The translations under genes were made by a program, and so were the position numbers. Of a stretch of DNA of 33,039 bases, positions 200-33,039 are shown piece by piece. Within the stretch, counting starts at the first letter, position 1, and every line of letters starts with the position of its first letter. The notes beneath the pieces are model-generated. The model worked only from the letters and a program-made list of their open reading frames with translations, did not search any database and had not been told where the DNA came from. Source of the DNA: Jimgerdemannia flammicorona (Eukaryota); contig RBNJ01000325.1 of the NCBI GenBank assembly GCA_003990765.1, positions 1-33,039 of the forward strand. Reading direction: 5' to 3'.

Positions 200-1660
200 A
201 TCCTATTAACTTGAACTCCCAAGCTTCTACAATTTGTATCTCTTTGTACTGTACAATTTGTATCATTATGTTCTCCCAATAGTGTCTCTTGGTGTGTCTA
301 AAGTCTCCTGGAACTACTTCTTAGAAATGGGCTAGGGCTGGCTCATCATCTTTGAACAGCTTATTAACTTATTTGGTGATTATGATCTGGGCATAAGAGA
401 GCTGGCACTTTCTGATCCAGTCTTCTTTTCTCATCTCTTTTTTTTTTTTTTTTTTTTTTATAGTTGCTTGGACTTCTTTATTATCTAGATAACTAATACA
501 ATAATAACTCTATATCCTGACCAATCTATCATATATAATTATGTTATTCCCTCACACTATCCAATACTCCTAGGGAGCCTCCCCCCCATACTCTCATACT
601 TGAAGACCACTCTGCCACCCACTACTCCAATTCTCCTCTCACTCTACCCACAGATTTTCTTCACCAAACAGCACCACTGACCCTCCTGCAGACTCTATCC
701 TAACCACTAGCCTGTCAAGATATCCTCTATCAACCCTTCTCATCTCACCAACTGCTCTCCCAAACTCAAATACTTCCCTTCCTCAAATACAAACAGCCAG
801 TGACCTACTAGTCCCACTCATACTACTAATACCCAACCTAAAGTCAGTCACTCTCTCCCCACCCCCTCCACCAATCTATCTCTCAGATCCTCCCATCAAT
901 CCTGCTCTCTATCCCCCATATACACCCCATCTAATCTATTCCCAACTACTAATCAAAAACCTCCCAGTATCTTGTACTTCTCCAGCCAATGTTCTGATAT
1001 CTGCACAAACCCCCCTTCCTGTCCTACATTATAGCACTCCTCACAATAAAAGTCCCCTTCCTCTATAAGATGGCTTGAGCAAAAGTTGAGCATAACATTC
1101 CTCTACAACATGCACTATCAAACCACTCAGTACTTGGGTGGCAACCATTGCTATGTTACTGCACTCCAGGCCCAGACTCCATTCCAGTCCCACTTCTTGC
1201 CAATTCTAGCCATCTGCTAGCAGCTAGGCCATACATCCTGTCCCATCCCCCTTTGGTACTCTACTCTATTACTAATATTAAAGTTTATAAGGGAGATACC
1301 CCCCAGTAACACTTGATCCTAACTCCACATTGCTGGGCCCCAAGGCACCTCTCCTTCATCCCCCTGCTAGTAAATTCTGATATGGTGAGCTCTATTTACT
1401 ACTCTCTACTTCTTTTCTCATCTCTGCCTGCAAGTTCAGTAACTGTCCTAACTTGAAGTATTCTTGAAGCTCTGTCTAATTCTGGTAGGCCTTGAAGTGT
1501 GAAATTTATGATAGATATATGTATCTGTATTATATTTTAGATACCATCAAAGAATTCCTCCATTGTAGGCAGCTTAGTAGTATACTATTGTCTTTCTATG
1601 ACTCATTATATAGCACTAGTGATCTTGAGACCTGTGACCATACTTTATTAACTAGCCATG
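200..1660 (-). pseudogene. Extra ORF of element A between integrase and 3' LTR, split by the LINE insertion (bounds approximate)
   Basis: Removing the LINE and one TSD copy restores a continuous frame: ELQEYFKLGQLLNLQAEMRKEDWIRKCQLSYAQIIITK*VNKLFKDDEPALAHF*EVVPGDFRH. It resembles the extra ORF of C. Confidence 0.5.
439..1408 (-). mobile_element. 5'-truncated LINE (L1/Tx1-like ORF2 C-terminus with zf-RVT region), with poly(A) tail and 17-bp TSD
   Basis: T22 at 438-459 is the poly(A) on the minus strand, with AATAAA at 477-482 (minus). Direct repeat cttcttttctcatctct at 422-438 and 1409-1425. Minus translation gives KKWDWNGVWAW...LPPKY...DFYCEECYNVGQEGGFVQISEHWLEKY, a W..VW..PPK segment plus CxxC...H zinc-finger pattern. 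Confidence 0.88.
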
Positions 1661-13812: not shown

Positions 13813-15209
13813 TGTAATATGCCTGGCTCAATAGAGGCAAATTACAAGGTTGAGGGTTGATGTAGTTTGGCTTGAGCCCACAGTTACTTTGTCAAAAAGT
13901 AACAAAATGTTCTATATGGTCCTTGGCATTTAGTGATATAATAGTCAAGCTAGATATCGGCAAGCAGTTTGTGTGTTGATTTCCTAATTGGGATGGTTCT
14001 CTGGGTGTAGCAGTAATTTGGGTCTTTCCTTCTTGGGTCAACAGGGAATTGGTAGAATTTCATATGTAGCATGAGCAGGTTCCTTATTTGGGTCAACTGG
14101 GAATGCTACAAATTTGTGTAGTGCAATGATCTCTGTGTGATAGTCTGGCAATTCAGCGGATCTCCCTCTTGGGTGACAGGTGATCTCTATATAGCACGAT
14201 GGGTTCCTTATGAGGGACATTTTGATAATTTGGTGGATAACTTGATTTGGCTCACTGGGAATAGCGGATGGCATGAGTTCTTCTTACTGGGAATTATACT
14301 GGTAGTGGGTTCTCTGAATTAGGCTCACTGGGAACAAATGAATAACTCAGATGGTGCAGATGTCATGAATTCTTCTGAATCAGCAGCTTCAACTGGGAAT
14401 GTGGCAGATAACTTAGAAATGACAGATGACACAGATTTGGCTTTAACTGGGAATACTATTTGGATGGCACAAGTTCTTCTTCTGGGAATACAATGATGTG
14501 GATTCTGGAAATGTAGATAACTCAAATGCAGTGGATGATACAGATTCTCCTGAATCAGCAGGCTTCTGGGAAATAACTTGGATGGCACAGATAACTTGGA
14601 TGTTGCAGATTCTTCCTGAACCAGTGGCTTTAACTGGGAAATGGCAGCGAAGTTCTTCCTTGAACTTGGGTGGCAAATCTTCAGGCTTATCTAGCAAGTG
14701 AACCAAAAATGGACTCATTCTTTATATCAGAAAGTGGACCAGAGTGGAAGAGAAGAGAACCAAGCTCACAACTTCTTGGCAGTGGCTCATTGGCAGGCAT
14801 ATCTTCTAAGTGTTACAATCCTTCCTGGATCAAGTGACTTTTGGCAGATGTTTCTCCTAAGTATACCAGACAATTGACTTTTGCTTTGGTTTGTATTCAA
14901 CTTTCAGACTGAGGTTTATTCACTCTTGTCTCTGGGGTAATTTATACAAGTTAGTTGCTATCTGGTTGCTATGTGGCGAACTATAGGTTTGCTATTTGTG
15001 GCAGGTGTACAGAGTCTGTACAGTGTACAGAGTCTGTATAGGTAAACAGACCCTATCTGGTATGTCCAGCCAATTATAAGTATGGCAGCATGAGTAACTA
15101 TGATATACTGGATATCATGCTGGGAGCCTATGTCATCTGGTTAAGTATGCCAATTGTTCACATTATCTGGCTAAGTTATAATTTGGGTGGTATGTTTTGG
15201 TCTATTACA
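13813..15209 (-). repeat. 3' LTR of element C (1397 bp)
   Basis: Colinear with 22769-24226. Plus-strand ends are tgtaat (13813) and attaca (15209). Confidence 0.95.
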
Positions 15210-15248
15210 TCAGTCTCCACTGAAGGATAGTCTGTCCCAGACTGTTCC

Positions 15249-15764
15249 TCAGTCGTCATCCCAGTAAGCATAGACTGCTTCTGCATCTATACCTGTTCCA
15301 TCATCTTCATTATCTGTACTAGGGTCACTCCATTGTATGGGCTCTTCTTCTTCTTCAGGGAATAGAATTTCGACAGAATTGATGATACTCAAATAGGTAA
15401 CAGGGTTCATTCCTTGAATGTCATTCAGGGAGAACAGTTCCTGTATCAGAGCTATGACATTTTATTTATAAATGGTGTATAGTCTGTCTGCAGCAGTAGT
15501 GTCTCTCCTGGTCAGATCTGTGGTGTTCCTGATGTAGGTCTGCTCTGGGGCTGGAAGGTTCTGCAATTGTTTGCCATTTGCATAATAGGCCTGCAGTTAG
15601 TAGACTTGTAGTAGGCATCTGGCTAAGGTGAGATTTTCTTGGTGAACTTGGATCTTCTGAAGGGGGTTTCCATAGGCTTGGCCAAATTGAGGTAGAGGAA
15701 CTGGTAGGGTCTGGAAGGAGCTAAGGACCAATGTCTGGAGGCACTGATCAATCCTTTGGCTCAT
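15249..15764 (-). pseudogene. Extra ~170-aa ORF of element C downstream of integrase, unknown function, acidic C-terminus
   Basis: MSQRIDQCLQTLVLSSFQTLPVPLPQFGQAYGNPLQKIQVHQENLTLARCLLQVY*LQAYYANGKQLQNL...AADRLYTIYN / ALIQELFSLNDIQGM...EEEEE...AYWDDD*. One stop and one frameshift. The same start is present in D at 32950. Confidence 0.7.
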
Positions 15765-18700
15765 GATGCAGGGAAAAATATAGTTTGAGGAGATTGATAT
15801 GTACTGGTGTTCTCAGGGTTCATCTGTCCATGCTTCTTAAATAGATGCTAGTTCCTCTGATGTTGTATACAAGATAAGGTCCTTCCCATTTGGGTTCTAA
15901 TTTGGTGGCAAAATTTGTTTCAATCATACTTCTCCAAACTAGTACTTGATCTCCAATCTTGATCTCCTGATCCTTCTGTTTCTGGTCATAATACTTCTTT
16001 TGTCTTTCCTGGGCTTTGATAATCTGATCTCAGGCTTGATTACATAACTGTTCTGCCTTCTTAAGGAGGTCTCCAAGATTCTCATGGTCAGGAGTCCTGA
16101 TTTTCTTGGCAAATATCATTTCAAATGGCTTTTGTTTAGTGGAGACAGCAGGGGTATTCTGAATTTCCCATAGGATCTCAGGTAAGCAGAGGTCTCAATT
16201 GGTAGAATTGACTCAGGCAAGTCTCTTCTTGATGGTCTGGTTCATTCTTTCTGTCATGCCATTGGTCTGAGGGTAATATGATATGGTCCATTTGAGATAG
16301 ATCTTGTGAATTTGGGCATAACTTGTGATTATGTTATTGATGAATTCTGTGCCTCAGTCAGAGATAAGTTCTTCTGGGGATTCATATCTGAGTGTGAGTC
16401 TATGGAGAAGGCCTACAATGGTTAGGGTATCTGTGATTTCCATTGAGAAAGCCTTGGGCCACTTGGTCAGATATTCTACAAATATAAGGATGTATTTGTT
16501 TCTTCTTAGTGTAACTGATAGAGGTCCAATTTCATCTATTTTCCATCTCTGAAAGATATTGTCTGATGGTACAATTGGTTGCAGTGGTGCTTGATAGTTC
16601 TTCCTTCCTTAGTACTTCTGGCAGATGTCACATTTCTTAACTATATTCTGGACTTGTGTTCTAAGATTGGGCCAATGTTGGTGTATTGTTTGCAGCTTCT
16701 CTTCTACATTTGCCTGTCCTTGGTGGGCTTTCTGATGTTCTTTTTGGATGAGATTTTCTTGTACCTTGATGGTCTGAGGAGCTTTCTTTAGGATGTAGTT
16801 TCTTGGAACACCCTTCTTCTGGTTCATTGGGGCTGGTGGGAAAGTACATCAACATTATTGTGGGTTTTCTCTGTTTTGTAAATAATGGTAATTTTGTAAT
16901 CCTGAAGGATAAGGATCCAGCAGGCTAGGATTCTGGTGGGTTCCTTGCAGTTGAATAGCCATTTGAGGGCTGCATGATCTGTGATCAGAGTGAACTTTTT
17001 TTCAATGAGGTAATGTTTGAACAGGGTGACCACCCATATGACTGCAAGGTATTTCAGTTTGGTGCTACCATAGTTCATCTGCTGCTGATTGGTAGCTCTG
17101 CTTGCATAGGCTATCATATGGTACTGTTGATCAGGTCCTTCTTGGGCCAGAACTGCCCCAAGACCATCTTTAGAAGCATCTGTATATAAGATGAATGGCT
17201 TCTGTAGATTGGGGTGCATAAGGATTGGTGCTGTAGTCATGTGGTTCTTGAGTTCTCTGAAGGCTTTTTCTTATATTTCTGTCCATTTGAATGGCACTCC
17301 TTTCTTGAGAAGGATTCGGATTGGGGCAGTGATTTGGACAAAGTCTTTGATAAACCTTCTGTAGTGGGATACTAGCATCAGAAATGATAGTGTTTCCTTT
17401 GGGGTTTTGGGTGCTGGCCAATTGTTAATTTTTTCAGTTTTCTTTGGGTCTGTATGAGTTCCTTCTTTTGAAACTATGAATCCAAGGAATTCAAGTTTCT
17501 GTTTCTCAAAGTAGCATTTCTTTGTATTCATCCTCATGAGGTTCTTGTGGGTGAGCTTGAAGAATTCCTCTGGGTGGTGCAGATGTTCTTCGAAATTTGC
17601 TGAATAGATATTGGAATCATCCATGTATACAATCAGACAGTGGTAGATCAAGCGAGCATAGACTGAATTCATCATCCTCTGAAAGGTGGGGGGTGCATTG
17701 CAAAGTCCAAAGGGCATTCGGAGGTACTCAAACAGTTTTTCTAGAGCAAGAAAAGCTGTCTTTTGAATGTCCTTGGGGTCCATGGAGATCTCATGGAATC
17801 CTGTGAAGAGGACTGCTGAAGTATCTGGCATCTTGTAACTGATCCAAGAGGTCATCAATTCTGGGCAGAGGATAGGCATCCTTTTCAGTTACTGAATTGA
17901 GTTTCCTGTAATCTACACAGAGTCTCCATCCTCCTTTCTTTGGTACAATAAGTATAGGGCTGGCCCAGGGGCTGGTAGAGGGTCAGATGACCCCATTGTT
18001 TAAGAGTTCTTGAATGTGCTCCTTTTTGAATGTTTTCAAGTGATAGGGTATTCTATAGGGTTTCTGCCAGATGGGTGTTGCATTTTCTGTATTTATGCTG
18101 TGGTGATATGCTGGATTTTATGGCAGGTTGCCATAATCAGTGGCGAAGATATCTTGATATTTGTTGAGAAGTTCTACTAGTTGTTGTTGTTGTTGAGATG
18201 TCAATTCTTCTCCAATATTGGTGGAAGGCTTCACTGTCTCCTGGGTCGCAGAGGGGCCTTTCCTTTCTTCTGGGACCTTTTGCCATTTCCCAATAGGTTT
18301 AGTTCATAAACTTCTCTATGAGTTCGGTTGAGAAAAGGTACCAGGTATCCTATGATGGTTCCTTTCAGCAAGATGATGGTTTCCCAACTTTGGTTGGTTG
18401 CTCGGGAGTATACTGGGTTCATCTTGTTGGGGAATGTGTGTCCCTCTATATCCAGATGGGGAATATCTTCCTTGGGTTCAAAGAAAAGATTCCTGGGGTC
18501 GAGTGGTGCAAAGATTTCAAAGGTTGTTTATTCTCCAGGCTCCAGGATAAGATTCTTGTGCAGTCTGACTGGTTGCTGGTACACTTGCTGGGGAACATTT
18601 CTCTTGAGATGGTTGACTTGAAGGAGGTATACTTCCTTTCTGTCTGAACTTCCAAATCCCTTGGCTTGTCTTGTTCCTTCAGTTGGTTTAGAGACTTCTT

Positions 18701-21700
18701 GTAACTGTGGGGTCTTGACTTTCATGAAGACTACTTGGGCAATCTTCTGTCCTCTAATGATTCGGTACTATTCTGCACTGCTGTTGTGTAAGATAACCTT
18801 GATTTCGCCTGTATATCCTGGGTCAATAGTTCCTCCTTCCACAGTTATCCCTTGTCTGGCAAGTCTGGACCTTGAGGTCAATTAGATATAAGCTCTCTGA
18901 GGTGGCTGCATGGCTAACGTGGTTCTGATCATAAAGGTCTTTCCAGGTTTGATATATTCATCCTCCAGACTGTTGAGGTCATACCCTATATCTACCAGGT
19001 GGGCTTTGGTCGGGGGTTTGGCCTTGGGGTGCAGCAGGGCATACTGGGCAATATCCTTGCTGAGTTCAGGCTTACCTAAGGCTGAAGCTCTACTAGCAGA
19101 GAGCCTCTAAGCTCTGAGGTTGAGGTGTGGCCATCTGGCTCCAGTGGAAGGGTCTCGGAGGTAATTAATTCCCCTTATTCCTGTAGGGTCTAGGGCTTCC
19201 ATAAAGTTGGTGACATCTTCTGCCCATCCTTGGTGGGTTGCATGTCTGATGAGAGCTAGGATGTCTTCTCCCAAATTGTAGATCTTGAGAATTCTTTTTC
19301 CTGACTTCTTGGTCTGACTTTTTCAGATCTGGCTTCAGTTATCTCCTCTCTTCAAGGTGTGAACTACAACATCATGGCTGAGATGGACCTTCTGTTGTCT
19401 GCAATCTCAGCAGTCTGTGTGTCTTCTATGGTTGCAATATCCCATTGCTTGGAAATGATGTTCCTGAATATTGATCTCTTGTTGTCTCAGGAATCAGTAC
19501 CCATCTTGATCATAAGTTGGGGGAAGGGTAGATAAGGGGTATATTTCTGTTAGGGTGAAGAAGTCTTGTCCTCTAAATCGACTTTGTAACCTTATGGTAA
19601 CTTCTTGAAAGGTGGTTGACTGTGCAAGTGTAGTTGGGGGTTCTGGTCTCTGGGGTATCTGTCTTTCTTGTTGGTCTAACAGATGACACTAATAGCAGTA
19701 GTCTTGGGGAGAGTGGAAGACCATTTGGTGTAGGCATCTTCCTAGCTGAAAGGCCTTCTCTTGGTGAGTTTCTTTCTTAGAGATAATTATTATCATACTG
19801 GGTCCTTCTTCTATATTCCAAGGGTCATTGTCCTTGAGTAGTGTCCATCAAGGGTCATCCCAGAGAATGAGTTCAGGGACTTCTTCCTCCTTGGGTACTT
19901 TTTGTTCAGGAACTTCTTGGTCAGAAGTTTCTTCTTCCTCAGATGATTCTTGACCCCAAATTGCTTGTACTTCTGCAGCTTTAGTCGCAGGTGTTTCTGG
20001 AATATGTCTGCATTTCTTCTTCTTCTTTCTGCATTCTGAGCAGGCTGTGCCAGGTGATTTCCTTGTTCCCATGATCTTGGAGGAATGCTCAGGACACCTG
20101 TGTCTCTTAAGGCAGGTAGGACATCCTTTGGCTTCTTCTGCAATAGCTTCAATAGTGATAGAGATGGTGTTCTTGGCCCACACATTATCTTCTGGTCTGT
20201 CATCCACCAGATTAATTCAGAGATTAAGTTGGGGATCATTTCTGTCTTCAGATTCTTTTTCCTTTTTTGTAGTAGACTCCTTGCTGCTGGTATATTCTTC
20301 CTGAATAGTGACCTTCTTCTTCTTCGATTGCTCATAGCTGGTTACCTTAACTCTGTACTTCTTGCCTCAGTAGTCAAACTTAAGTACTTGTTGGCCAATA
20401 TCAACAACTGCATTCATTTCCTTCATCCAGTTGGTGTCAAGAATCATGTCATAGGTGACAGCTTCAGTGACAACAGCTTTGGGGATGGAGAACTGAATGT
20501 GACCAAGGGAGATGGTGATATTTCATACTTCTCCAAAGGGTTGAGTTCAGGCTCCATCTGCTACTATGATGCTGAGGTTGGATGGTCCATCAATGGGCCA
20601 TTGGAGGGTGTCCAGGAACCATTTGGCAATGACACAGATAGCTGCTCCTGTGTCTATGAGAATCTTCGCATTTTGTCCTCCAATATCTCCATGTAAGTAG
20701 GTGCTGACATATCTTTCAGCTGTCTGAACAAGGATGGGAACTGGTTCTTGCTGTGGGATTGGGACTCAGCCAGTGCTAGACCTGGTGGTTCTCAGCAATT
20801 TGTTTCAGACTCCAGCTGGTATCAATTTCAGGAACTGCAGGAGGGGAATATCCATCTTGGTCTCTTGGATCTTCTGCCAGGCTTCATTGTAGATGTCTCT
20901 AGGCATGGGCTTTGGGGTATACTTTCTTGGGCTTTGGGGCAACAGGTTCCTGTTCTTCTTGTTCCATTTCTTCATCCTCTGGTGGTAACTCATTTGTCTT
21001 GGGAATAAAAGATAATGGGGTTTGGGGAGATGTTTCTACCTGTTCCTCTTCATGTTCTTCATCTTCTTCTTGGATGATTCTTCTGCTGATATTCCTGGAT
21101 GGCCTTCCCACAGGTCTCTTCCTTTTCTCTGCTGGGTAAACTGTTTTTCGAGAGGTGACCTTGGTAGGGTACAAGTCTAGATCACTATAGTCTTTACTGT
21201 TACTTGCTTCCTCGAAATATTCCACAGGATGGGCTTCACTCTTCTTGTACTGAGTGTCATTCCTGCAGTTTAGTGGTTCTGAGTCCCTTTGGTCACTTAT
21301 TTTATTGTCACATTCAGTAGAATAGTGTCTGAATTGTCCACAGTAAAAGTATTGGACTTGGGCTCTATCTCAGACAGGGTATTCTCTCTTCTTACTGATA
21401 ACTCCTGTTATCTCTGGGTGGATAACCTTGGCTCCTCTGTGGTGGGTATTCTATATTGTCTTGGTAGCTCTAATTTTTGCATATAGTGAGTTTTTCAATC
21501 TGTCCAACCAATCAGTCCAACTTGGAGCTGAGGTCTTGGATTTCACTTCTATCCTTCTTTTCTTCCTTGGCTGGCCTTCTTTCTTCAGATCTTTCTTGTT
21601 CTTGAAGGAGTCCTTGTAGGGATTTGACCAGGATGTCTTCTTTCTCTTCTTTCCTGTCATGATCACTCCAGGTAGTTTCTTGTCTGACATCAAGGAATCC

Positions 21701-22210
21701 CTGGGCTATATCTACTTGCTCTTCAGACCTTCTGATGCCTAGGGTGTGGACATACTTGGTAATATTTGGGGGAATTCCATTCATGAAGGTCATTGGACTG
21801 ATGATGTCCTGATTGATGGCATTGAACCCAGCAGCATGCATTCTCTTCTAGATTCTTGTGAAGAAGGCTCTGAGTGATTCTCCAAGATTCATCTTCATCC
21901 CCATGATGGATTTCTGAGCCTTGTGGTGGGTTTCATTTCCTGTATACTTTTCAATGAGCCAGTGGACCATGGCCTCATATTCTAGCTCATAAGACATTGC
22001 TACTTGTATCTGTCTTGCCAGTTCTGAATCTGGGTTGTTTGCTGTTCAATAGAAAATTCCTCTAGCTGGTTCTCTGAGCTGAGCATTGTAGATGGCGATT
22101 TTTCTTTCATCTGAGAGATTTCTCAAGACTGTGATTCCTTCAATTCCATCAAGGAATTCTCTGGAGTCTTCCTCCGGGTATCCTGTAAAGGTTGGCAATG
22201 AGGTGGCCAT
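15761..22210 (-). pseudogene. gag-pol of element C (frame probably extends upstream toward ~22740)
   Basis: ORF pieces 22046-22375 and 21512-21841 (gag), 19848-20207, 18528-18725, 17271-17879 (RT), 16824-17240 (RNase H), 16609-16827 (integrase HHCC). Confidence 0.93.
18645..19065 (-). pseudogene. dUTPase domain in pol of element C
   Basis: Minus strand encodes DIGYDL (motif 1), TSRSRLARQG (2), EGGTIDPGYTGEIKV (3), RGQKIAQ (4), TRQAKGFGSS (5). Confidence 0.92.
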
Positions 22211-22749
22211 TTCTTCATCACTTTCTTCTAATTCTAGTTTGGGTTCAGATTCTGATTCTGATTCACTTTCTGAGCTATCACTGGAGGTGGGGGTGCTTGG
22301 GTATCTTGAGGATAGTGTTCTGGACCTTGGACAAAGTGGGATAAGTCTAGGTATTCTTGTAGGAGCTACTTCCAACTCTGCAAGGGGTTGTGGTAAAGGT
22401 TCTATTGGTGAAATTGGTGGGACTGGTATGGGGCATCTGGCTGTAAGGTCTCAGGTTCATGTAATAAAATCTTCTAGTTCTTGTACAAGTTCTTCAAAAT
22501 CTCTAGCAGAACTGCATGTATTGTCTGATTGATCTGGTTGGGAATTTCAGGCTGCACTGCCATTTGGTTCTGGTTGGGATCCTTCTGATGCTGGGTAGTT
22601 GGCAAGTCTTGATGTGATTACTTCTCTTCCTGTCCAAATGCTGGTGATGACTGGTTTTTCTGTAGTAGCAGAGGTTAGTGTTGTATCAAATATATCCAGT
22701 TTGACTGTGGGTTCTTATGAGCTAAAAAGTCATGTTGATTTTGAAATCT

Positions 22750-22766
22750 TCCCAGTTGAGCCTCCA
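22750..22766 (-). promoter_or_regulatory. Primer-binding site of element C
   Basis: TGGAGGCTCAACTGGGA begins 2 nt inside the 5' LTR end. Complementary to a tRNA ending ...GAGCCU-CCA (U discriminator, Gln- or Cys-type; identity not established). Confidence 0.8.
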
Positions 22767-22768
22767 AA

Positions 22769-24226
22769 TGTAATGTGCCTGGCTCAATAGAGATAAATTA
22801 CAAGGTTGGGGGTTGATGTAGTTTGGCTTGAGCCCCCAGTTACTTTGTCAAAAAGCAACAAAATGTTCTAAGATTCCTGTGGTCTTTGGTATTTAGTGGT
22901 ATAATAGTCAAGCTGGATATTTGCAAGCAGTTTGTTTGTCAATTTCCTGATTGGGATAGTTCTCTGGATGTAGCAGTGATTTGGGGCTTTCCTTCTTGAG
23001 TCAATGAGGAATTGGTAGAATTTTGTATATAGTGTGAGTGGGTTCCTTATTTGGGTCAACTGGGAATGCCACAAATTTGTGTAGCATGACGATCTCTGTA
23101 TGATGGTCTGGCAATTTGGCAGTTCTCCCTCTTGGGTGATGGGTGATCTCTATATAGCATGATGGGTTCCTTATGTGGGACATTCTGATAATTTGGCAGA
23201 TAACTCGATTTGGCTCACTGGGAATAGTGGATGGTGTGGGTTCTTCTTACTGGGAATTATACTGGTGGCAGGTTCTCTGAATCAGACTCACTGGGAACAA
23301 ATGAATAACTTAGATGGTGCAGATGTTGTAGATTCTTCTGAATCAGCAGCTTCAACTGGGAATGTGGCAGATAACTTAGAAATAATGAATGATATAAATT
23401 TGGCTTTAACTGGGAATACTACTTGGATGGTGCAAGTTCATCTTCTGGGAATACGATGGCATGGATTCGGGGAATGCAGATAACTCAAAAGTGGTAGATG
23501 ACACAGATTCTCCTGAATTGGCAGGCTTCTGGGAAATAACTCAGATGGTGTGGATAACTTGGATGTTGCAGATTCTTCCTGAACCAGCAGCTTCAACTAG
23601 GAAATGGTGGCAAAGTTCTTCCTTGAACTTGGGCAGCAAATCTTCAGACTTATCTGATAAGTGAACCAAAAACAGACTTGTTCTTTGTATCAGAAAGTGG
23701 ACTGGAGTAGAAGAGAAGAGAACTAAACTCACAACTTCTTAGCAGTGGCTCATTGGCAGGCATATCTCCTAAGTGTTGCAATCCTTCCTAGATCAAGTGG
23801 CTTTTGGCAGACATTTCTCCTAAGTGTACCAGATAATTGACTTTTGCTTTGGTTTGTATTCAACTTTCGGACTGAGGTTTATTCACTCTTGTCTCTGGGG
23901 TAATTTGTACAAGTTGGTTGCTATCTGGTTGCTATGTGGCTAACTATAGGTTTGCTATTTGTGGCAGATATACAGAGTCTATATAGTGTACAGGTCCTAT
24001 ACAGTGTACAGAGTCTGTACAGTATACAGAGGCTGTACAGTATACAGAGTCTATACAGGTAAACAGACCCTATCAGGTATATCCAGCTAATTATAAGTAT
24101 GGCAGCATAAGTAACTATGATATACTGGATGTCATGCTGGGAGCCTACATCATCTGGTTAAGTATGCCAATTGTTTACATTATCTGGCTAAGTTATAATT
24201 TGGGTGGTATGTTTTGGTCTGTTACA
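22769..24226 (-). repeat. 5' LTR of element C (1458 bp)
   Basis: Colinear with 13813-15209. TGTAAC start at 24226 on the minus strand; followed by the PBS. Confidence 0.95.
23969..24058. repeat. 5 x 18-bp tandem array of a palindromic unit (TGTACAGA-G-TCTGTACA-G) in U3 of C's 5' LTR
   Basis: Units tatacagagtctatatag, tgtacaggtcctatacag, tgtacagagtctgtacag, tatacagaggctgtacag, tatacagagtctatacag. Two units at 15006-15041 in the 3' LTR; one in D (~24507-24524). Confidence 0.9.
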
Positions 24227-24230
24227 ATAG

Positions 24231-24297
24231 ATATGAGTAACTATACTATGCTTAGAGTTTATATTATCTGGTTATCTTATATTATTTGTTCATTACA
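24231..24297 (-). repeat. Outer remainder of element B's 5' LTR
   Basis: 13790-13812 joined to 24231 onward reads agctaattataagtataatag|atatgagtaactat..., homologous to the C LTR agctaattataagtatggcagcataagtaactat. Ends ...cattaca. Confidence 0.7.
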
Positions 24298-24368
24298 TTA
24301 TATATATATTAATTATATATAGGTATAGTAGTAATAACAAAAATAGTCTCTATTGCAATTATAGATAT

Positions 24369-25598
24369 TGTCACAAACCAAGATATACCACCTGAATTAT
24401 AACTTAACCAGATGATATAGGCTCCCAGCATAACATTCAGTATATCATAGTTACTCATGCCACCATACTTATAATTAGCTGGATATACTAGATAGGGTCT
24501 ATTTACCTGTACAGACTCTGTACATCTGATATAAGTAACAGGTCTATAGTTAGCCACATAGCAACCCATAGCAACCAAACTATATAAATTACCCCAGAGA
24601 CAAGAGTGAATAAACCTCAGTCCAAAAGTTGAATACAAACCAAAGCAAAAGTCAATTATCTGGTACACTTAGGAGAAACACCTGCCAAAAGCCACTTGAT
24701 CCAGGAAGGATTGCAACACTTAGGAGATATACCTGCCAATGAGTCACTGCTCAGAAGTTGTGAGCTTGGTTCTCTTCTCTTCTACTCCAGTCCACTTTCC
24801 AATATAAAGAACAAGTCTATTTTTGGTTTGCTTGTCAGATAAGCCTGAAGATTTGCTGCCCAAGTTCAAGGAAGAACTTTGCCACTGTTTCTCAGTTGAA
24901 GCTGCTGATTCAGAAGAATCTGCACCATAGTATTCCCAGTCGAAGCTGCCATTTTCAACTTGTCTGCATTCTCAGAGGACCTGTACCACCAGAGTTATTA
25001 TTCTCAGAAGAGCCTGATTCGCACCATCTGAGTTATTCATTGTTTCCGGTAAGTCTGAGTTATCAAGTTACCTGCTGCCAGCATTATTCCTGCTTATTCG
25101 AATTATCTGCACCATCCAAGTTATTAGTCCCAGAAGTCTGCCAATTCAGGAGAAGTCATGCCAAATCAAGCTATCTGCCAGAAATTGCATATTTTTGGAG
25201 ATTGTCATGCTACACTGAGATCGCCCATCACTCAAGAAGGAGAACTGTTATATTGCCAGACTGTCACACAGAGATCATTGTGCTACACAAACTGTGGTAT
25301 TCCCAGTTGACCCAAATAAGGAACCCACTCACACTACATATGAAATTCCACCAATTCCCAGTTGACCCAAGAAGGAAAAGACACAAATTGCCACTATACC
25401 CAGAGAATCATCCCAATTAGGAAATCAACACACAAAATACTCACAGATATTAAGTTTTGACTATTATACCACTAAATACCAAGGACCACAGGAATCTTAG
25501 AACATTTTGTTGCTTTTGACAAAGTAACTGGGGGCTCAAGCCAAACTACATCAATTCCTAACCTTGTAATTTACCTCCATTGAGCCAGGCACATTACA
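24369..25598 (+). repeat. 5' LTR of element D (1230 bp)
   Basis: TGTCAC...ATTACA termini. Reverse-complement homologue of the C LTRs, with TATATAAA at ~24581 and GAGTGAATAAACCTCAG at 24604-24620. Confidence 0.92.
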
Positions 25599-25599
25599 T

Positions 25600-25617
25600 T
25601 TGTGGGCTCAACTGGGA
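25600..25617 (+). promoter_or_regulatory. Mutated primer-binding site of element D
   Basis: ttgtgggctcaactggga vs C ttggaggctcaactggga, at the same position after the LTR. Confidence 0.7.
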
Positions 25618-25789
25618 AGATTTCAAAATCAATGTGACTTTTTAGCTTACAAGAACCTACAGTCAAACTGTATACATTTGATACAATGCCAACCTCTGCC
25701 ACTATAGGAGAACTAGTCATCACCAGCATTTGGACAGGAAGAGAAGTAATTACATCAAGACTTGCCAACTACCCAGCATTAGAAAGATC

Positions 25790-25870
25790 CCAACCAGAAC
25801 TAGAAAGCAGTGTAGCCTGAAATCCCCAACCAGAACCAGAAGGCAGTGCAGCCTGAAATCTCCAACCAGA
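25790..25870 (+). repeat. 36-bp tandem duplication in the leader/N-terminal gag region of D
   Basis: ccaaccagaactagaaagcagtgtagcctgaaatcc / ccaaccagaaccagaaggcagtgcagcctgaaatct. Single copy in C (~22535-22577). Confidence 0.8.
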
Positions 25871-27201
25871 TCAACCAGATAATACAAGCAGTTCTGCTAG
25901 AGATTTTGAAGAACTTGCACAAGAATTAGAAGATTTTATTACATAAACCTGAGACCTTATAGCCAGATGCCCCATATCAGTCCCACTAATTTCACCAATA
26001 GAACCTTTACCACAACTCCTTGCAGAGTCAGTAGTAGCTCCTACAAGAATACCTAGACTTACTCCACTTCATCCAAGGACCAGAACACCATCCTCAGGAA
26101 GCCCAAGCATCTTCATCTCTAGTGACGGTTCTGAAAGTGAACCAGAATCAGAATCCAGACCAGAACCAGAATCAGAAGAAAGTGATAAAAAAATGGCCAC
26201 CTTACTTCCAACCTTTGCAGGATACCCAGAGGAAGACTCCAGAGAATTCCTTGATGGGATTGAAGGAATTGCAGTCTTGAGAAATCTCCCAGATGACAGA
26301 AAAATCACCATCTACAAGGCTCAGCTCAGAGAACCAGCCAGAGGAATTTTCCATCAAACAGTAAACAACTCAGATTCAGAACTGGCAAGACAGATACAAG
26401 CAGCAATGTCCTATGAGCTAGAATATGAGGCCATGGTCCACTGGCTCATTGAAAAGTATGTGGGAAATGAAACCTACCACAAGGCTCTGGAATCCATTAT
26501 GAGGATGAAGATGAATCTTAAAGAATCACCCAGAGCCTTCTTCACAAGAATCCAGAAGAGAATGCATGCTGCCAGGTTCAATGCCACCAACCAGGACATC
26601 ATTGGTCCAATGACCTTCATGAATGGAATTCCCCCAAACATTGCCCAGCATGTTCACACCCTAGATATCAGAAGGTCAGAAGAGCAAGTAGATGCAGCCT
26701 AAGGATTCTTTGATGTCAGACAAGGAACTACCTGGAGTGATCATGATAAGAAAGAAGATAAAGAAGACATCCTGGTCAAAGCCCTACAAGGACTCCTTCA
26801 AGGACAAGAAAGATCCAAAGAAAAAAGACCAGCCAAGGAAGGAAAGAAAGACAGAAGTAAAATCTAAGACCTTAGCTCCAAGTTGGACTGATTGGTTGGA
26901 CAGATTGAAAAACTCACCACATGCAAAAATTGGGGCTACCAAGACAACAGAGGATATCCACTACAGAGGAGCCAAGGCTATCCACCAAGAGATAATAGGA
27001 ATTACCAGCAAGAAGAAAGAAGGTACCCTGTCCAAGACAGAACCCAAGTCCAATGCTTCCACTGTGGACAATTTGGACATTATGCCACCGAATGTGACAA
27101 CAAAAGAAGTGACCAAAGGGACTCAGAACCACCAAACCAAAGGAATGATACTCAGTATAAGAAGACTGAAGCCCATCCTGTGGAAGATTTCGAGGAAGCA
27201 A

Positions 27202-27318
27202 AAAACTTGCCTGTATAGGGCTATCCACTCAGGAAGATAGTGTCATCCTTGTGCAGGGGCCATGCTAATCTTCTCTGTATCATTCCAATTTTTTCAAGTG
27301 TCAGTGGTCCCGAAGGAC
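27202..27318 (-). ncRNA. U6: U6 spliceosomal snRNA retrocopy (pseudogene), full length
   Basis: Minus strand: GTCCTTCGGGAC (5' UUCG hairpin) CACTGACACTTGAAAAAATTGGAATGATACAGAGAAGATTAGCATGGCCCCTGCACAAGGATGACAC...GTTTT. ACAGAGA box, AGC triad, ISL and oligo-U end are all present. Flanked by the 16-bp TSD gatttcgaggaagcaa (27186-27201, 27324-27339). Absent from the homologous site in C (~21200-21222). Confidence 0.97.
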
Positions 27319-28607
27319 TTGATGATTTCGAGGAAGCAAGCAACAGTGAAGACTATAGTGACCTGGACTTGTACCCTACCAAGGTCACCTCCCAAAAAAC
27401 AGTTTACCCAGCAGAGAAAAGGAAGAGACCTGTGGGAAGGCCATCCAGGAACATCAGCAGAAGAATCATCCAAGAAGAAGACGAAGAACATGAGGAAGAA
27501 CAAGTAGAAATATCTCTCTGAACCCCCTCACCTTTTGTCTCTGAGACAAATGAGTTGCCACCAGAAGATGAAGAAATAGAATAAGTAGAACAGGAACTTG
27601 TTGCCCCAAAGCCCAAGAAAAAGTACACCCCAAAGATCATACCTAGAGACATCTACAATGAAGCCTGGCAGAAGATCCAAGAGGCCAAGATGGAAGTCCC
27701 CCTCCTGTAGTTCCTGCAACTGATGCCAGTTGGCATCCGAAACAAATTACTGAGAACCACCAGGTCTAGCACTGGCTGAGTCCCAATCCCACAGCAAGAA
27801 CCAGTTCCCATCCCTGTCCAGGCAGCTGAAAGACATATCAGCATCTACCTACATGGAGATATTGGAGGACAAAAAGTAAAGATCCTCATAGATACCAGAG
27901 CAGCTGTCTGTGTCATTGCCAAATAGTTCCTGGACACCCTCCAATGGCCCATTGATGGACCATCCAATTGCAGTATCATAGTAGCAGATAGAGCCCAAAT
28001 TCAACCCCTTGGAGAAGTATGAAATATCACTATCTCCCTCAGACACATTTAGTTCTCCATCTCCAAAGCTGTTGTCACTGAAGCTATCACCTATGACATG
28101 ATTCTTGGCACCAACTGGATGAAGGAAATGAATGCAGTTGTTGATATTGGCCAACAAGTACTCAAGTTTGACTACTGAGGCAAGAAGTACAGAGGTAAGG
28201 TGACCAGCTATGAGCAATTGAAGAAGAAGAAGGAGGTTACTATTCAGGAAGAATATGTCAGCAGTGAAGAGTCTACCATAGAGGAGGAAGAAGAATCTGA
28301 AGATGGAAATGATCCTAGACTCAACCCCCGAATTAACCTGGTAGATGATAGACCAGAGGACAATGTATGGGCCAAGAACACTGTCCCCATTATCATTGGA
28401 GCCATTGCTGGAGAAATCAAAGGATGCCCTATCTGTCTCAAGAGACACAAGTGTCCCAAGCATTCCTCCAAGACTATGGGAATAAGGAAATCACCTGGCA
28501 CAGTCTGCTCAGAGTGCAGAAGGAAGAAGAAGAAATGCAGACATGTTCCAGAAACACCTGCAACTGAAGCTGCAGAAGTACAAGCAATTTGGGGTCAAGA
28601 ATCATCT

Positions 28608-28799
28608 GAGGAAGAAGAAACTTCTGACCAAGAAGTTCTTGAACAAGAAGCACCTGAAGAAGAAGAAACTTCTGACCAAGAAGTTCTTGAACAAGAAGCA
28701 CCTGAAGAAGAAGAAACTTCTGACCAAGAAGTTCTTGAACAAGAAGCATCTGAAGAAGAAGAAACTTCTGACCAAGAAGTTCTTGAACAAGAAGCACCT
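28608..28799 (+). repeat. 4 x 48-bp coding tandem repeat (EEEETSDQEVLEQEAP)
   Basis: Four near-identical gaagaagaagaaacttctgaccaagaagttcttgaacaagaagcacct units. One unit in C (~19893-19940). Confidence 0.95.
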
Positions 28800-29649
28800 A
28801 AAGAAGAAGAGGTCCCCGAACTCATGCCCTGGGATGATCCTCACTGGACACCACCCAAAGACAACGACCCTTGGAATATGGAAGAAGGACCTAGTATAAT
28901 CACCATTATCCCCAAGAAAGGAACCCACCAAGAAAAAGCTTTTCAGCTAGGAAGATGTCCACATCAAATTGTCTTCCACTCTCCCTGAGACTACTGCTAT
29001 CAGTGCCATTTACTAGACCAACAGGAGAGACAGACCCCAGAGACCAGAACCCCCGAACACACTCACACAGTCAATTACCTTTCAAGAAGTCACCACCAAG
29101 TTGCAAAGCTGATTCAGGGGACAAGGCTTCTTCACCCAGACAGAAATATATCTCTTGTCTACTCTTCCACCCACCTATGACCAAGATGGGTACCCTTTCC
29201 CAAGACAACAAGAGATCAATAACTGGGAATATCATTTCTGAGTAATGAGATACTGCAACCATGGAAGACATCCAGACTGCTGAGACTGCAGGCATCAGAA
29301 GATCCATCTCAGTTATGATGTTACAGTCCACACCTTGAAGAAAGGAGATAACCAAAGCCAGATCTGAAATAGCCAGATCCAAAAAAGCTAGACCAAAAAG
29401 CCTGGAAGAAGGACCCTCAAGATCTATAATGTAGGCAAAGATATCCTAGCTCTCATCAGACATACAACCCACCAAGGATGGGCAGAAGATGCCACCAACT
29501 TCATGAAAGCCCTTAATCCTACAGGAAGAAGGGGAATCAACTATCTCTGAGACCCCTCTACTGGAGCCAGGTGACCACACCTCAAACTTAGAGCTTGGAG
29601 GCTTTCCACTAGTGGAGCTTCAGCCTTAGGAAAGCCTGAACTCAGCAAG

Positions 29650-30060
29650 GATATTGCCCAATATGCCCTGCTGCACCCCAAGGCCAAACCCCTGACCAAA
29701 GCCCACCCAGAGGATATAGGATATGATCTTCACAGCCTGGAGGATGAATCTATCAAACCTGGAAAAACCTTTATGATCAGAACCGGATTAGCCATGCAGC
29801 CACCCTAAGGAGCTTATATCCAACTGACCTCAAGGTCTGGACTTGCTAGACAAGGAATAACTGTGGAAGGAGAAACCATTGACCTAGGATAAATAGGTGA
29901 AATCAAGGTTATCTTACACAATAGCAGTGCAGAATAGCACTGAATCATTAGAGGACAGAAGATTGCCCAAGCAGTCTTTATGAAAATCAAGACCCTACAA
30001 TTACAAGAAGTCTCTGAACTAACTGAAGGAACAAGACAAGCCAAGGGATTTGGAAGTTCA
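29650..30060 (+). pseudogene. dUTPase domain in pol of element D
   Basis: KAHPEDIGYDL, TSRSGLARQG, EGETIDLG*IGEIKV, RGQKIAQ, TRQAKGFGSS. Confidence 0.92.
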
Positions 30061-32949
30061 GACAGAAAGGAAGTATATCTCCTTCAAGTTAACCACCTCA
30101 AGAGGAATGTTCCCCAGCAAGTGTACCAGCAACCAGTCAGACTGCACAAAAATCTTATCCTGAAGCCTGGAGAACAAACAACCTTCGAAATATTTGCACC
30201 ACCCGACCCCAGAAAACCTTTTCTTTGAACCCAAGGAAGATATTCCCCACCTGGACATAGAGAGACACACATTCCCTGATAAGATGAACCCAGTACACTC
30301 CAGAGCAACCAACCAAAGTTGGGAAACCATCATCTTGCCGAAAGGAACCATTATAGGGCACCTGGTACCTTTTCTCAACCAAACTCATAGAGAAGTTTAT
30401 GAACTAAACCTATTGGGAAACAGCAAAAGATCCCAGAGGAAAGGAAAGACCCCTCTGTGACCCAGGAAACAGTGAAGCCTTCCACCAACATTGGTGAAGA
30501 ATTGGCACCTCAACAACAACAACAACTAGTAGAACTTCTTAATAAATATCAAGATATCTTCACCACCGATTATAGCAACCTACCATACAATTCATCATAT
30601 CACCATAGCATAAATACAAGAAATGCAACACCCATCTGGCAGAAACTCTATAGAATACCCCATGACTTGAAAACATTTAAAAAAGTGCATATCCAAGAAC
30701 TCTTAGATAATAGAGTCATCCGACCCTCTACCAGCCCTTGGGCTAGCCCTATACTTATTGTACCAAAGAAAGGAGGATGGAGACTCTGTGTGGACTACAG
30801 GAAACTCAATTCAGTCACCAAAAAGGATACCTATCCTTTGCCCAGAATCGATGACCTTTTGGATCAGTTACAAGATGCCAGATACTTCAGCAGTATGGAC
30901 CTCTTTGTGGGATTCCATAAAATCCCCATGGACCCAAAAGACATTCAGAAAACAGCCTTCCTTGCTCTAGAAAAACTGTTTAAATACCTCCAAATACCCT
31001 TTGGACTTTGCAATGTACCCCCCCACCTTTCAGAGAATGATGAATTCAGTCTATACTCCCTTGATTCACTACTGCCTGATTTTATACATAGACAATTCCA
31101 ACATCTATTCAGCAAATTCTAAAGAACACCTGCACCACCTAGAGGAATTCGTTATACTCACCCACAAGAACTACTTGAGGCTGAATGCAAAGAAATGCTA
31201 CTTTGGAAAACAGAAACTCAAATTTCTTAAATTCATAGTTTCGAAGGAAGGAACCCATGCAGACCCAAAGAAAACTGTGAAGATCAACAATTGGCCAGTA
31301 CCCAAGACCCTGAAGGAAACACTATCATTCCTGATACTAGTATCCTACTACAGAAGGTTTATCAAGGATTTTGCCCAAATTGCTACTCTAATCCAGATCC
31401 TTCTCAAGATAGGAGTATCATTCAAATAGACAGAATCACAAGAAAAAGCCTTCAAAGAACTCAAGAACTGCATAATTACAGTACTGATCCTTATGTGCCC
31501 CAATCTACAGAAGCCATTCATCTTGTATACAGATGCTTCTAAAGATGGCCTCAGGGGCAGTTCTGGCTCAAGAAGGACCCAATCAACAGCACCATGTAAT
31601 AGCTTATGCAAGCAGAGCTACCAATTAGTAACAGAAGAACTATGGTAGCACCAAACTGGAATTCCTTGCAGTCATATTGGCAGTCACTCTGTTCAAACAT
31701 TACCTCATTAGAAAAAGATTCACTCTGATCACAGACTATGCAGCCCTCAAATAGCTATTCAACTATAAGGAACTCACCAGAATCCTAGTCTGCTGGATCC
31801 TTATCCTTCAGGATTACAAAATCACCATCATTCACAAAGCAGGGAAAGCCCATAACAATGTTGATGTACTTTTCCACCAGCCCCAATGAACCAAAAGAAG
31901 GGTGTCCCAAGGAACTATACTCTAAAGGAAGCTCCTCAGACCATCAAGGCACAGGAAGACCTCATCTGAAAAGAACATCAGAAAGCCCATTAAGGATAAG
32001 CAAACATAGAAGAAAAGCTGCAAACAATACACCAACATTGGCCCAATCTCAGAACATAAGTCTGAGATATACTCATAAAATGTGATACCTGCCAGAAGTA
32101 CCAAGGAAAGAAGAACTATCAAGCACCATTGCAATCAATTATACTGCCAGAAAACATCTTTCAGAGATGGAGAATAGATGTAATTGGACCTCTACCAGTT
32201 ACACCAAGAAGAAACAAATATATCCTTATATTTGTAGAACATCTGACCAAGTGGTCTAAGGCTTTTCCAATAGTAATCACAGATGCCTTAACCATTGTAG
32301 GTCTCCTCCATGGACTCACACTCAGATATGGACCCCCAGAAGAACTTATCTCTGACCAAGGCACAAAATTCATTAATAACATAATCACAAGTTATATCCG
32401 AATTCACAAGATCTACCTCAAAAGGACCACATCATACCACCCTCAGACCAATGGCATGACAGAGAGAATGAACCAGACCATCAAGAAAGAACTTGCCTGA
32501 GTCAATCCTACTAATTGGGACCTCTGCTTACCTGAGATCCTATGGGAAATTTGGAATACCCCTGCTGCCTCCACCAAACAAAAGCTATTCAAAATGATGT
32601 TTGCCAAAAAAACCAGAATTGCTGACTATGAGAATCTTGGAGACCTCCTCAAGAAAGCAGAACAGTTACATAGTCAAGCCCAAGGACAGATTATAAAAGC
32701 CCAAGAAAGACAAAAGAAGTACTATAACCAAAAACAGAAGGATCAGGAGATTAAGATTGGAGATCAAGTACTAGTTTGGAGAAGCATGATTGAAACAAAT
32801 TTTGCCACCAAACTGGAACTCAAATGGGAAGGACCTTATTTTGTATATAACATTAGAGGAACCAACATCTATTTAAGAAGCATGGATGGATGAATCCTGA
32901 GAATACCAGTATACATCAATCACCTCAAACTATATCTTCCCTCCACACC

Positions 32950-33020
32950 ATGAGCCAAAGGATTGATCAGCGCCTCCAGACATTGGTTCTCAGCTCCTTC
33001 CAAGCCCTACTAGTTCCTCT
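32950..33020 (+). pseudogene. Start of the extra 3' ORF of element D, interrupted by poly(T)
   Basis: MSQRIDQRLQTLVLSSFQALLVP, homologous to C 15764 onward. The ATG overlaps the pol TGA (ATGA). Confidence 0.65.
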
Positions 33021-33039
33021 TTTTTTTTTTTTTTTTTTT
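33020..33039 (-). mobile_element. Probable poly(A) tail of a further minus-strand non-LTR insertion
   Basis: A run of 20 T replaces the sequence that follows gttcctct in C (acctcaatttgg). Same junction style as 422-459. Confidence 0.55.

Follow-up and report, generated by a model that had tools for sequence, protein, structure and literature searches.

The window, by which we mean the whole stretch of 33,039 bases that we analysed, contains two copies of the same Ty3/gypsy family that lie in inverted orientation to each other (Table 1). Element C is a complete copy with an LTR pair that is 85.9% identical and is flanked by a 4-bp target duplication (CTAT); element D is disrupted by a second insertion and by the end of the contig. 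The domains of D follow the Ty3/gypsy order, with RVT_1 at 30403-31426 and rve at 32066-32497, and the segment that we describe here is inserted within its gag, approximately 85 nt beyond the CCHC zinc knuckle. The reverse transcriptase ORF yielded 2950 protein matches, of which the top one, at 67% identity, carries no name; those with a name are 32-50% identical and come from arachnids, plants, Chara and a microsporidian, and no relatives of this ORF were found among viral contigs. These matches point to no one taxon, and the fungal origin put forward in the earlier note gains no support from them. For the gag ORF of D, no homologues were found at E ≤ 0.001 (742 candidates, 5.8 billion proteins). 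The window also holds a Fic-like ORF, for which one relative (52%) was recovered besides its own record. Eight sequencing runs were listed, six of them with 0.05-0.17 of the sampled words (four studies, all labelled metagenomes) and none listed as an RNA run, and such small shares are uninformative on habitat, strain or expression.

Table 1. Features of the window discussed in the text, with the insert read as a probable U6 retrocopy.
Feature	Position	Strand	Details
Poly(A)-tailed retroposon (439-1408) with its duplications	422..1425	-	22-nt A-run, in its own sense
Element C, complete sister copy	13813..24226	-	LTRs 13813-15209 and 22769-24226
Empty site in element C	21204..21219		15/16 identical to the duplication in D
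Element D, Ty3/gypsy	24369..33019	+	5′ LTR 24369-25598, then gag, RT, integrase
CCHC zinc knuckle, gag of D	27051..27101	+	PF00098, E 9.1e-06, residues 54-70 of ORF 26892-27215
Left duplication copy, GATTTCGAGGAAGCAA	27186..27201		16/16 identical to 27324-27339
Insert	27202..27323	-	122 bp, in D and not in C; antisense to gag
3′ end of insert	27202..27210	-	9 nt past the end of the Rfam model (..GCAAGTTTT, U6 sense)
Rfam U6 match	27211..27318	-	RF00026, full model length
In-frame TAG brought into gag by the insert	27216..27218	+
Five extra nucleotides (ATCAA, U6 sense)	27319..27323	-	separate the canonical 5′ G from the duplication
Right duplication copy	27324..27339		16 bp, direct reading
Terminal 20-T run of the contig, inside D	33020..33039	-

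An Rfam search of the window returned a single match of any family at or above its gathering score, and this match was to the U6 snRNA (RF00026). It runs on the minus strand from 27318 to 27211, scores 75.4 bits (E = 1.4e-17) against a gathering score of 44, and spans model positions 1-105 of 105, which confirms the earlier note that had read a full-length antisense U6 in gag from the letters of the DNA. The alignment contains the ACAGAGA box, the AGC triad and the 5′ UUCG stem-loop, the stem of which has 4 bp, and the core follows the consensus nearly letter for letter. A consensus C is replaced by U within ..AACGAUAC..., just upstream of ACAGAGA, and a further difference, one G/A, lies in the ..CUGCxCAAGG.. 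segment. The proposed explanation of the C-to-U change as CpG decay is plausible, given that the CpG observed/expected ratio of the window is 0.21 and that transitions account for 782 of the 886 mismatches in the MAFFT alignment of C and D.

Read in the sense of U6, the insert begins with ATCAA, continues through U6 to ..GTTTT and then passes directly into the duplication, which begins with TT. As judged from the insert itself, its 3′ side stops at a terminal U-run and its 5′ side carries 5 extra nt. We read the last 9 nt of the insert as the terminal U-run of the U6 RNA, and no A-run or poly(A) follows it in the insert sequence, in agreement with the earlier reading of a U-run that abuts the duplication and of five additional 5′ nucleotides. 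The 3′ domain, which continues for 9 nt past the Rfam model, is putative U6 sequence, and ATCAA is either a true 5′ extension of the U6 of this lineage or consists of nucleotides added by the reverse transcriptase or as filler. In the minimum free energy fold of the insert, nt 2-7 pair with nt 25-30 and replace the canonical 5′ stem-loop, a fold that is suggestive only.

The insert is flanked by a direct repeat that is identical at 16 of 16 positions, and the chance expectation for such a 16-mer repeated within 200 bp is ~0.0015 over the whole window. Because the last two A of the left copy could equally be cDNA of two more U of the tail, the duplication is 14-16 bp long. In the sister element C, the corresponding site is uninterrupted. 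The self-BLAST alignment of C and D is broken exactly at the insert (19881-21218 pairs with 28667-27325, and 21204-23162 with 27201-25205), and in the MAFFT alignment the U6 insert is the only indel of at least 10 bp outside tandem-repeat tracts, the other three lying inside such tracts. The perfect 16-bp duplication and the empty site in C, both of which had been claimed before, were thus recovered at the same places, and together they give the combination expected of a LINE-made retropseudogene, in which a duplication of roughly 7-20 bp is paired with a homologous sequence that has the site empty.

The earlier note had also pointed to a length that preserves the frame of gag. The arithmetic holds, as the insert plus the duplication amount to 138 bp or 46 codons with the one TAG, and the frame of 26892-27218 reopens at 27219-27521. 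This observation nevertheless carries no weight, because one third of insertions keep the frame, the insert itself brings a stop, and the gag frame of D contains three further stops (26700, 26865 and 26889).

We consider the insert to be probably a processed retropseudogene of the host U6 snRNA that was made by a LINE-type reverse transcriptase in a resident, ageing Ty3/gypsy copy. That the copy is derived from RNA is supported by its 3′ boundary, which falls exactly at a Pol III-type U-run. Because this boundary consists of 4-6 U with nothing beyond, it fits the end of a Pol III RNA, whereas a duplication at the DNA level would give an arbitrary boundary. Because the gypsy integrase leaves a duplication of 4 bp (CTAT around C), the integrase did not insert the U6 sequence. 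The 16-bp duplication lies within the LINE range, as do the 17 bp duplicated at a poly(A) retroposon of this contig; flanking repeats of 10-20 bp are described for LINE insertions and for chimeras made by LINEs in fungi (PMC2104539). Functional U6 genes have a Pol III promoter with an upstream TATA and with A and B blocks in fungi or a PSE in animals and plants. No such promoter was imported, the flanks being gag sequence common to C, and the sole TATA-like motif in them is a weak, pre-existing TATAG ~39 nt upstream of the U6 copy. No function is evident for the copy, which CpG loss appears to be eroding.

That LINE-type insertion machinery acted here is shown by two poly(A) retroposons of the contig. 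The first of them, at 439-1408, has a perfect 17-bp duplication (422-438 and 1409-1425). The T-run at 33020 sets in precisely at the point from which the colinear sequence goes on in C, so it marks the beginning of a second poly(A) retroposon, on the minus strand and within D. The earlier description of 439-1408 as a LINE is not supported: with its poly(A) tail and a duplication close in length to 16 bp the element shows LINE-type activity, but it is not itself a LINE, as no LINE-like coding content was found in it. Moreover, no non-LTR reverse transcriptase was found in the 33 kb, where all RVT_1 matches are of the LTR type. The primer end at the U6 copy is purine-rich (..AGCAA^GC), and those at the two poly(A) retroposons are pyrimidine-rich (..TCTCT^GC and ..TCCTC^T). 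Because the primer ends differ, a common endonuclease is not demonstrated.

For a U6 retropseudogene, the following course of events would account for the structure. The plus strand of the window would be opened after ..GAGGAAGCAA, by an endonuclease of the LINE type or at a nick that was already there. The AA thus exposed at the 3′ end would pair with the U-run that terminates a U6 RNA, mature or nascent, without any part played by poly(A). In trans, a reverse transcriptase of the non-LTR (LINE) type would then copy this RNA as far as its 5′ end and add 5 nt that may or may not come from it. A second nick on the other strand, 16 (14-16) bp away, followed by fill-in, would give rise to the target-site duplication. 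The enzyme, the AA:UU priming, the order of the nicks and the relative age of the insertion are points that we infer. Target-primed reverse transcription that starts on the U-tail, as proposed in the earlier note, is plausible in view of the primer strand ending in ..GCAA.

The age of the insertion was approached through its CpGs. In the comparison of C and D, 2 CpGs are common to both, 33 are retained in one copy only and 64 appear as TG/CA double decays, and the per-copy CpG survival between the two elements is ~0.11. Three CpGs are retained at the insertion, one in each copy of the duplication and one in the 5′ stem-loop of U6. Under a CpG clock, the probability of an unchanged duplication pair is 0.0027 for an insertion as old as the split of C and D and 0.053 for one half as old. 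CpG survival suggests that the insertion is younger than its host element D. The age argument leans on a single CpG, which C has kept as well, so the site may be an unusually stable one; once the CpG term is left out, the age test is powerless (0.23 at the full age of the split).

A younger age counts against a template switch inside a gypsy virus-like particle, an origin that we regard as unlikely. Here the reverse transcriptase would have jumped, during plus-strand synthesis in the replication cycle of D itself, from minus-strand DNA onto co-packaged U6 RNA and back to a position 16 nt upstream, so that D integrated with the insert already in place. A 2004 paper reportedly proposed that the packaging of U6 by retroviruses can generate pseudogenes, and retroviruses are reported to package U6 selectively. 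A jump during plus-strand synthesis also predicts the antisense orientation, and the two junctions show a 2-nt AA:UU microhomology and a GAT/GAT repeat, respectively. Template-switch recombinants, however, normally show microhomology and not duplications, and a precise back-jump would be required for a perfect 16-bp duplication. Moreover, the three CpGs have been kept despite near-saturated decay since the C/D split, and the 16 bp agree with the 17 bp duplicated around a retroposon of this contig that is unrelated.

Capture without a LINE endonuclease appears equally improbable; here the repair of a staggered double-strand break would have used, as a patch, U6 cDNA or U6 RNA that some cellular reverse transcriptase had copied. 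A clean 16-bp duplication is not a normal product of end-joining capture, and the insert stops precisely at the 3′ end of the RNA, with primer complementarity as in templated priming. What such a capture would explain are the extra nucleotides at the 5′ junction and a nick site that does not resemble the pyrimidine-rich primer ends at either poly(A) retroposon; in addition, pre-existing nicks can be used by the L1 RT/EN (PMC5322556).

About as improbable is a U6-headed member of a SINE-like family or a chimera of U6 with another RNA, in which the last ~36 nt would be foreign (e.g. LINE-derived) and act as a recognition tail. The 3′ domain does extend 9 nt beyond the Rfam model and has few identities after ..GAUGACAC, U1- and U2-headed SINEs exist (PMC4494074), and vertebrate U6-LINE chimeras are common (PMC4476161). 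Against this, what closes the insert is an ordinary Pol III U-run and not a LINE-type tail, and no extended match to the 36-nt tail was found elsewhere in the window. The longest common word is 12 nt; the tail has 8 common 10-mers, several of them in duplicated TE copies, whereas 200 shuffles gave 1.3 on average and 6 at most.

Nor was a second copy found in the window: no further U6 or other Rfam match was detected at E ≤ 1 in 1-27237 (27297-33039 was searched at the gathering threshold), and the window contains no tRNA. Exact scans gave 0 hits for a 22-mer of the U6 5′ part in metagenome, genome and viral contigs and 0 for a 32-mer of its 3′ part in metagenome contigs, the sole collection scanned with that word, which is weak evidence because few eukaryotes are represented there. 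A full-text literature search with 19 nt of the U6 5′ part matched 0 papers. An assembly artefact, in which a U6 segment was mis-joined into what is apparently a whole assembled contig, is extremely improbable, as a chimeric join would not yield a 122-bp insert with a perfect 16-bp duplication in otherwise colinear sequence.

The structure of the proposed U6 retropseudogene was compared with known systems. For 36 characterised human U6 copies, Doucet et al. (2015, PMC4476161) give duplications in 13 of 14 retrotransposon chimeras, in 6 of 6 poly(A)-extended copies and in 12 of 12 3′-truncated copies, whereas 0 of 4 full-length 'alone' copies have one, and the latter are taken as genes. Unlike these classes, the copy in D combines full length and the lack of any partner or tail with a flanking duplication. 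It resembles the mammalian L1-made U6 pseudogenes of the same source in that U6 would have been copied by LINE machinery in trans, with duplications of variable size, and in being non-functional and without promoter context. It differs from them in a nick that is not TTTT/A and in a U6 sequence that is not vertebrate-like.

Tailless retropseudogenes are said to have been reported by Schmitz et al. in 2004. In Noll et al. (2015, PMC5322556), they are a class of therian mammals with 2-18 nt of complementarity between target and RNA, and the cases described there are all 3′-truncated at internal single-stranded purine-rich segments. The U6 copy shares with this class the lack of oligo(A), the flanking duplication and the complementarity between target and RNA, which here amounts to 2 nt (AA:UU) between the primer ..GCAA and the RNA end ..GUUUU(UU). 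It departs from the class in being untruncated, its Rfam match extending through the last of the 105 model positions with the terminal U-run beyond, and priming appears to have taken place at the extreme 3′ terminus of the RNA.

A small non-coding RNA, a LINE reverse transcriptase and direct repeats of 10-20 bp would also link the copy to U6-LINE chimeras and to the fungal WEIRD-MGL (MINE) chimeras (Gogvadze et al. 2007, PMC2104539), the latter being examples of RNA copied by LINE machinery outside animals. Those are bipartite or tripartite fusions with a LINE or SINE 3′ part, whereas no second component is detectable here, and the 5′ partner of the Magnaporthe chimeras is explicitly not U6. 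SINEU (Kojima 2015, PMC4494074) is likewise snRNA-derived sequence mobilised by LINEs; it is multi-copy with LINE-derived tails, in contrast to the single copy and plain U-run end in D. A U6 head was not found among the SINEU families that we compared, the heads being U1 or U2. A full-length U6 retrocopy from a fungus or another non-vertebrate was not among the cases in the literature, which was searched mainly through titles and the openings of abstracts.

The insert in D is a single clean case of a known type of event with an uncommon structure, one dead copy in a dead transposon. There is a small chance that U6 with a lineage-specific 3′ extension is a recurrent passenger of a LINE with a reverse transcriptase able to start on a bare U-tail, with dispersed full-length, tailless, duplication-flanked copies that make up a SINE-like family of which the copy in the gag of D is one member. 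If this were true, such a family would represent a mode of retroposition and a type of SINE head that are so far undescribed.

If our reading of a processed U6 retropseudogene is right, the U-run with which a Pol III transcript naturally ends can serve as the starting point of LINE-type target-primed reverse transcription at nicked DNA that ends in A. A start on the U-run would produce a complete, tailless snRNA retrocopy, a form absent from the human U6 classes catalogued so far and from the always-truncated tailless class, and it would extend snRNA retroposition beyond vertebrates. The value of this U6 copy is that of a datable marker of past LINE activity rather than of a new system.

Searching the 33,039-base window against Rfam showed that U6 (RF00026) was the sole family at or above its gathering score, and the match covered the complete model on the minus strand, which bears out the proposal of an earlier note that a full-length U6 snRNA copy lies antisense in the gag of element D, a plus-strand LTR retrotransposon. 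The catalytic core aligned nearly letter for letter with the Rfam consensus. Directly upstream of the ACAGAGA box the consensus C was replaced by U, and the 5′ stem-loop consisted of a UUCG loop on a 4-bp stem. Along the minus strand, in U6 orientation, the order is the 16-mer TTGCTTCCTCGAAATC, ATCAA, U6 and the 16-mer TTGCTTCCTCGAAATC again. The 3′ portion extends 9 nt beyond the end of the model, to ..GCAAGTTTT, and the U-run directly abuts the duplication, with no A-run after it. The 16-bp duplication, the missing poly(A) and the five extra nucleotides were all found as previously described. In U6 orientation the first two letters of the 16-mer are TT, so the U-tail may be anything from 4 to 6 nt long and the duplication from 14 to 16 bp. 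By chance, about 0.0015 exact 16-mers would recur within 200 bp of each other in this window. Insert plus duplication indeed amount to 138 bp (46 codons) with a single TAG at 27216-27218, but the weight that the earlier note placed on the preserved gag frame is not warranted: one third of insertions are frame-neutral, the insert itself adds the TAG, and the gag of D contains three other stops. Anti-U6 RNA in any D transcript would be a trivial consequence.

Features of the U6 insert, its host elements and the poly(A) retroposons
Feature	Position	Strand	Details
U6 (RF00026) match	27318 to 27211	minus	75.4 bits (gathering score 44), E 1.4e-17, model positions 1-105 of 105
16-mer duplication copies	27186-27201 and 27324-27339	+ strand coordinates	122-bp insert between
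Element C	13813-24226	minus	LTRs 13813-15209 and 22769-24226, 85.9% identical; termini TG..CA
Element D	24369 to 33019	plus	5′ LTR 24369-25598
CCHC zinc knuckle of D	27051-27101	plus	domain search
RVT_1 of D	30403-31426	plus	domain search
Integrase core of D	32066-32497	plus	domain search
Further stops in the D gag frame	26700, 26865, 26889	plus	frame reading
Poly(A)-tailed non-coding retroposon	439-1408	minus	22-nt A-run; perfect 17-bp duplication 422-438 and 1409-1425
Terminal run of 20 T	33020-33039	minus-strand poly(A)	begins exactly where C stays colinear (C 15694 onward)

Self-BLAST identified D and its sister element C as two head-to-head copies of one LTR retrotransposon family, which are 142 bp apart (24227-24368) and 88% identical over 7,465 aligned positions. 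The succession of zinc knuckle, RVT_1 and integrase in D is the Ty3/gypsy order. Because C has its own 4-bp target duplication, CTAT, the two elements are separate insertions and not an inverted duplication. The U6 insert formed an exact break in their alignment (19881-21218 of C versus 28667-27325 of D, and 21204-23162 versus 27201-25205), and the reported empty site in C held up as an uninterrupted single target at 21204-21219 that is 15/16 identical. Four C/D indels measured at least 10 bp, and the three besides the U6 insert fall in tandem-repeat tracts. Adjoining C is a third, older and partial member of the family (11182-12726), which shares 73-74% identity with both elements and, ending ~260 bp before the target site, is uninformative on the insert.

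No homologues of the D gag were found in 5.8 billion proteins at E ≤ 0.001. The best relative of the D reverse transcriptase in the protein search was 67% identical, with named matches from arachnids, plants, Chara and a microsporidian at 32-50%; several of its protein-database relatives also carry a dUTPase. Such a domain (PF00692, E 3.1e-09) accompanies an RVT_1 fragment in the remnant of a different retroelement at 3752-4960 (minus). Between gag and pol, D contains a 48-bp tandem repeat (28596-28810; 4.5 copies, 96% matches) that codes for acidic EEEETSDQEVLEQEAP-type repeats, and C lacks 144 bp of this tract (D 28611-28754). Tandem repeats of 18/36 bp with TATACAG-type units (23969-24081) are expanded in the 5′ LTR of C relative to its 3′ LTR and the D LTR.

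Because the RNA 3′ end is precise, the duplication has the size of a LINE staggered cut and the empty site is clean, the U6 copy most likely arose by RNA-mediated insertion through target-primed reverse transcription. Repeats of 10-20 bp are described as flanking LINE insertions and fungal LINE-made chimeras (PMC2104539). The primer strand, which is the plus strand of the window, terminates ..GAGGAAGCAA, and its last two A would pair with the U6 U-run, so that an A-tail would not be required for priming. That such machinery acted here follows from two poly(A) retroposons in the contig. One had been called a LINE, but we found no Pfam domain or LINE-like ORF in it, making it a poly(A) retroposon and not a demonstrable LINE; a 5′-truncated LINE, a SINE or a processed transcript are candidates for its origin. 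The 20 T at the contig end are probably the start of the second, a minus-strand element in the integrase-distal region of D at which the assembly broke. Elsewhere, a Fic/DOC-domain pseudogene (10165-11120, minus) has six stops in 318 codons, and its sole relative found was one 293-aa protein (52% identity). The window seems to span an entire assembled contig, since the protein cluster to which this ORF belongs has a longest contig of 33,039 bases. Integrase-mediated insertion of particle-made U6 cDNA is excluded, because the integrase of this gypsy family leaves 4 bp, not 16.

Transitions made up 782 of the 886 C/D mismatches, and the CpG observed/expected ratio of the window was 0.21, with TpG/CpA in excess (1.19) and TpA at 0.77. 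The two elements have 2 CpGs in common, 33 survive in just one of them and TG/CA double decay is seen at 64 sites, corresponding to a CpG survival of ~0.11 per copy. This looks like methylation-driven transposon CpG decay rather than classical RIP. The duplication copies are mutually identical and both keep their CpG; within U6, the CpG of the 5′ stem-loop is intact, and that of ..ACGAU.. is now TG. On the C/D clock, a duplication pair would stay unchanged with a probability of 0.0027 if the insertion dated from the C/D split and of 0.053 if it were half as old; the test had no power without its CpG term (0.23 at full age). Because an unchanged CpG-bearing pair is improbable at the age of the split, U6 most likely entered a D copy that was already long resident. 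The duplication CpG may be an unusually stable site, since the same CpG survives in C. The antisense orientation and the microhomologies at the junctions would also be accounted for if plus-strand synthesis inside the gypsy particle had switched templates to a co-packaged U6. Such a switch requires a back-jump of exactly 16 nt and predicts that insert and D are of equal age, and we consider it improbable. We give an equally small chance to endonuclease-independent capture at a staggered break that was already present, which amounts to a variety of the same reverse-transcription route; the purine-rich primer end fits such capture and differs from the pyrimidine-rich ends of the poly(A) retroposons, ..TCTCT^GC and ..TCCTC^T.

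The 3′ domain of the U6 copy is longer than the Rfam consensus and probably unlike the near-invariant U6 3′ ends of animals and plants. In its ..CUGCACAAGG.. variant, and in how far a UGAG motif lies from the preceding ..GAUGACAC, it presumably resembles the fission-yeast arrangement, a lead that would point to a fungus but falls short of a test. A chimera or U6-headed SINE with a foreign last 36 nt is likewise improbable: neither a partner for this tail nor a second U6 copy was found in the window, the copy terminates in a plain Pol III U-run, and exact words from the insert were absent from contig collections containing few eukaryotes (the 5′ 22-mer from metagenome, genome and viral contigs, the 3′ 32-mer from metagenome contigs). 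Mis-assembly is hardly credible, being incapable of producing a duplication-flanked insert. At the other end, ATCAA may belong to the U6 of this lineage as a true 5′ extension; it starts with a purine, and in the MFE fold insert nt 2-7 form perfect pairs with nt 25-30. Equally, it could have been added at the 5′ junction, as commonly happens in LINE-made insertions.

Among the 36 human U6 copies characterised by Doucet et al. 2015 (PMC4476161), duplications are reported for 13/14 retrotransposon chimeras, 6/6 poly(A)-extended and 12/12 3′-truncated copies, whereas the four full-length 'alone' copies are without duplication and are taken to be genes. Tailless retropseudogenes, described in therian mammals, have no A-tail, are primed by 2-18 nt of target/RNA complementarity and are all reported as truncated at internal single-stranded segments (PMC5322556). 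The U6 copy in D works the same way but, unlike these, appears to have been primed at the extreme RNA 3′ end, so that nothing was lost from it, and belongs to a non-vertebrate. For the LINE-made chimeras of Magnaporthe, U6 is described as explicitly not involved (PMC2104539), and a literature search, mostly at the level of titles and abstract openings, found no full-length U6 retrocopy from a fungus or other non-vertebrate. The insert, a lone copy in decay for which no function is indicated, is best filed as an snRNA retropseudogene from LINE-type reverse transcription, of a structurally new variant.
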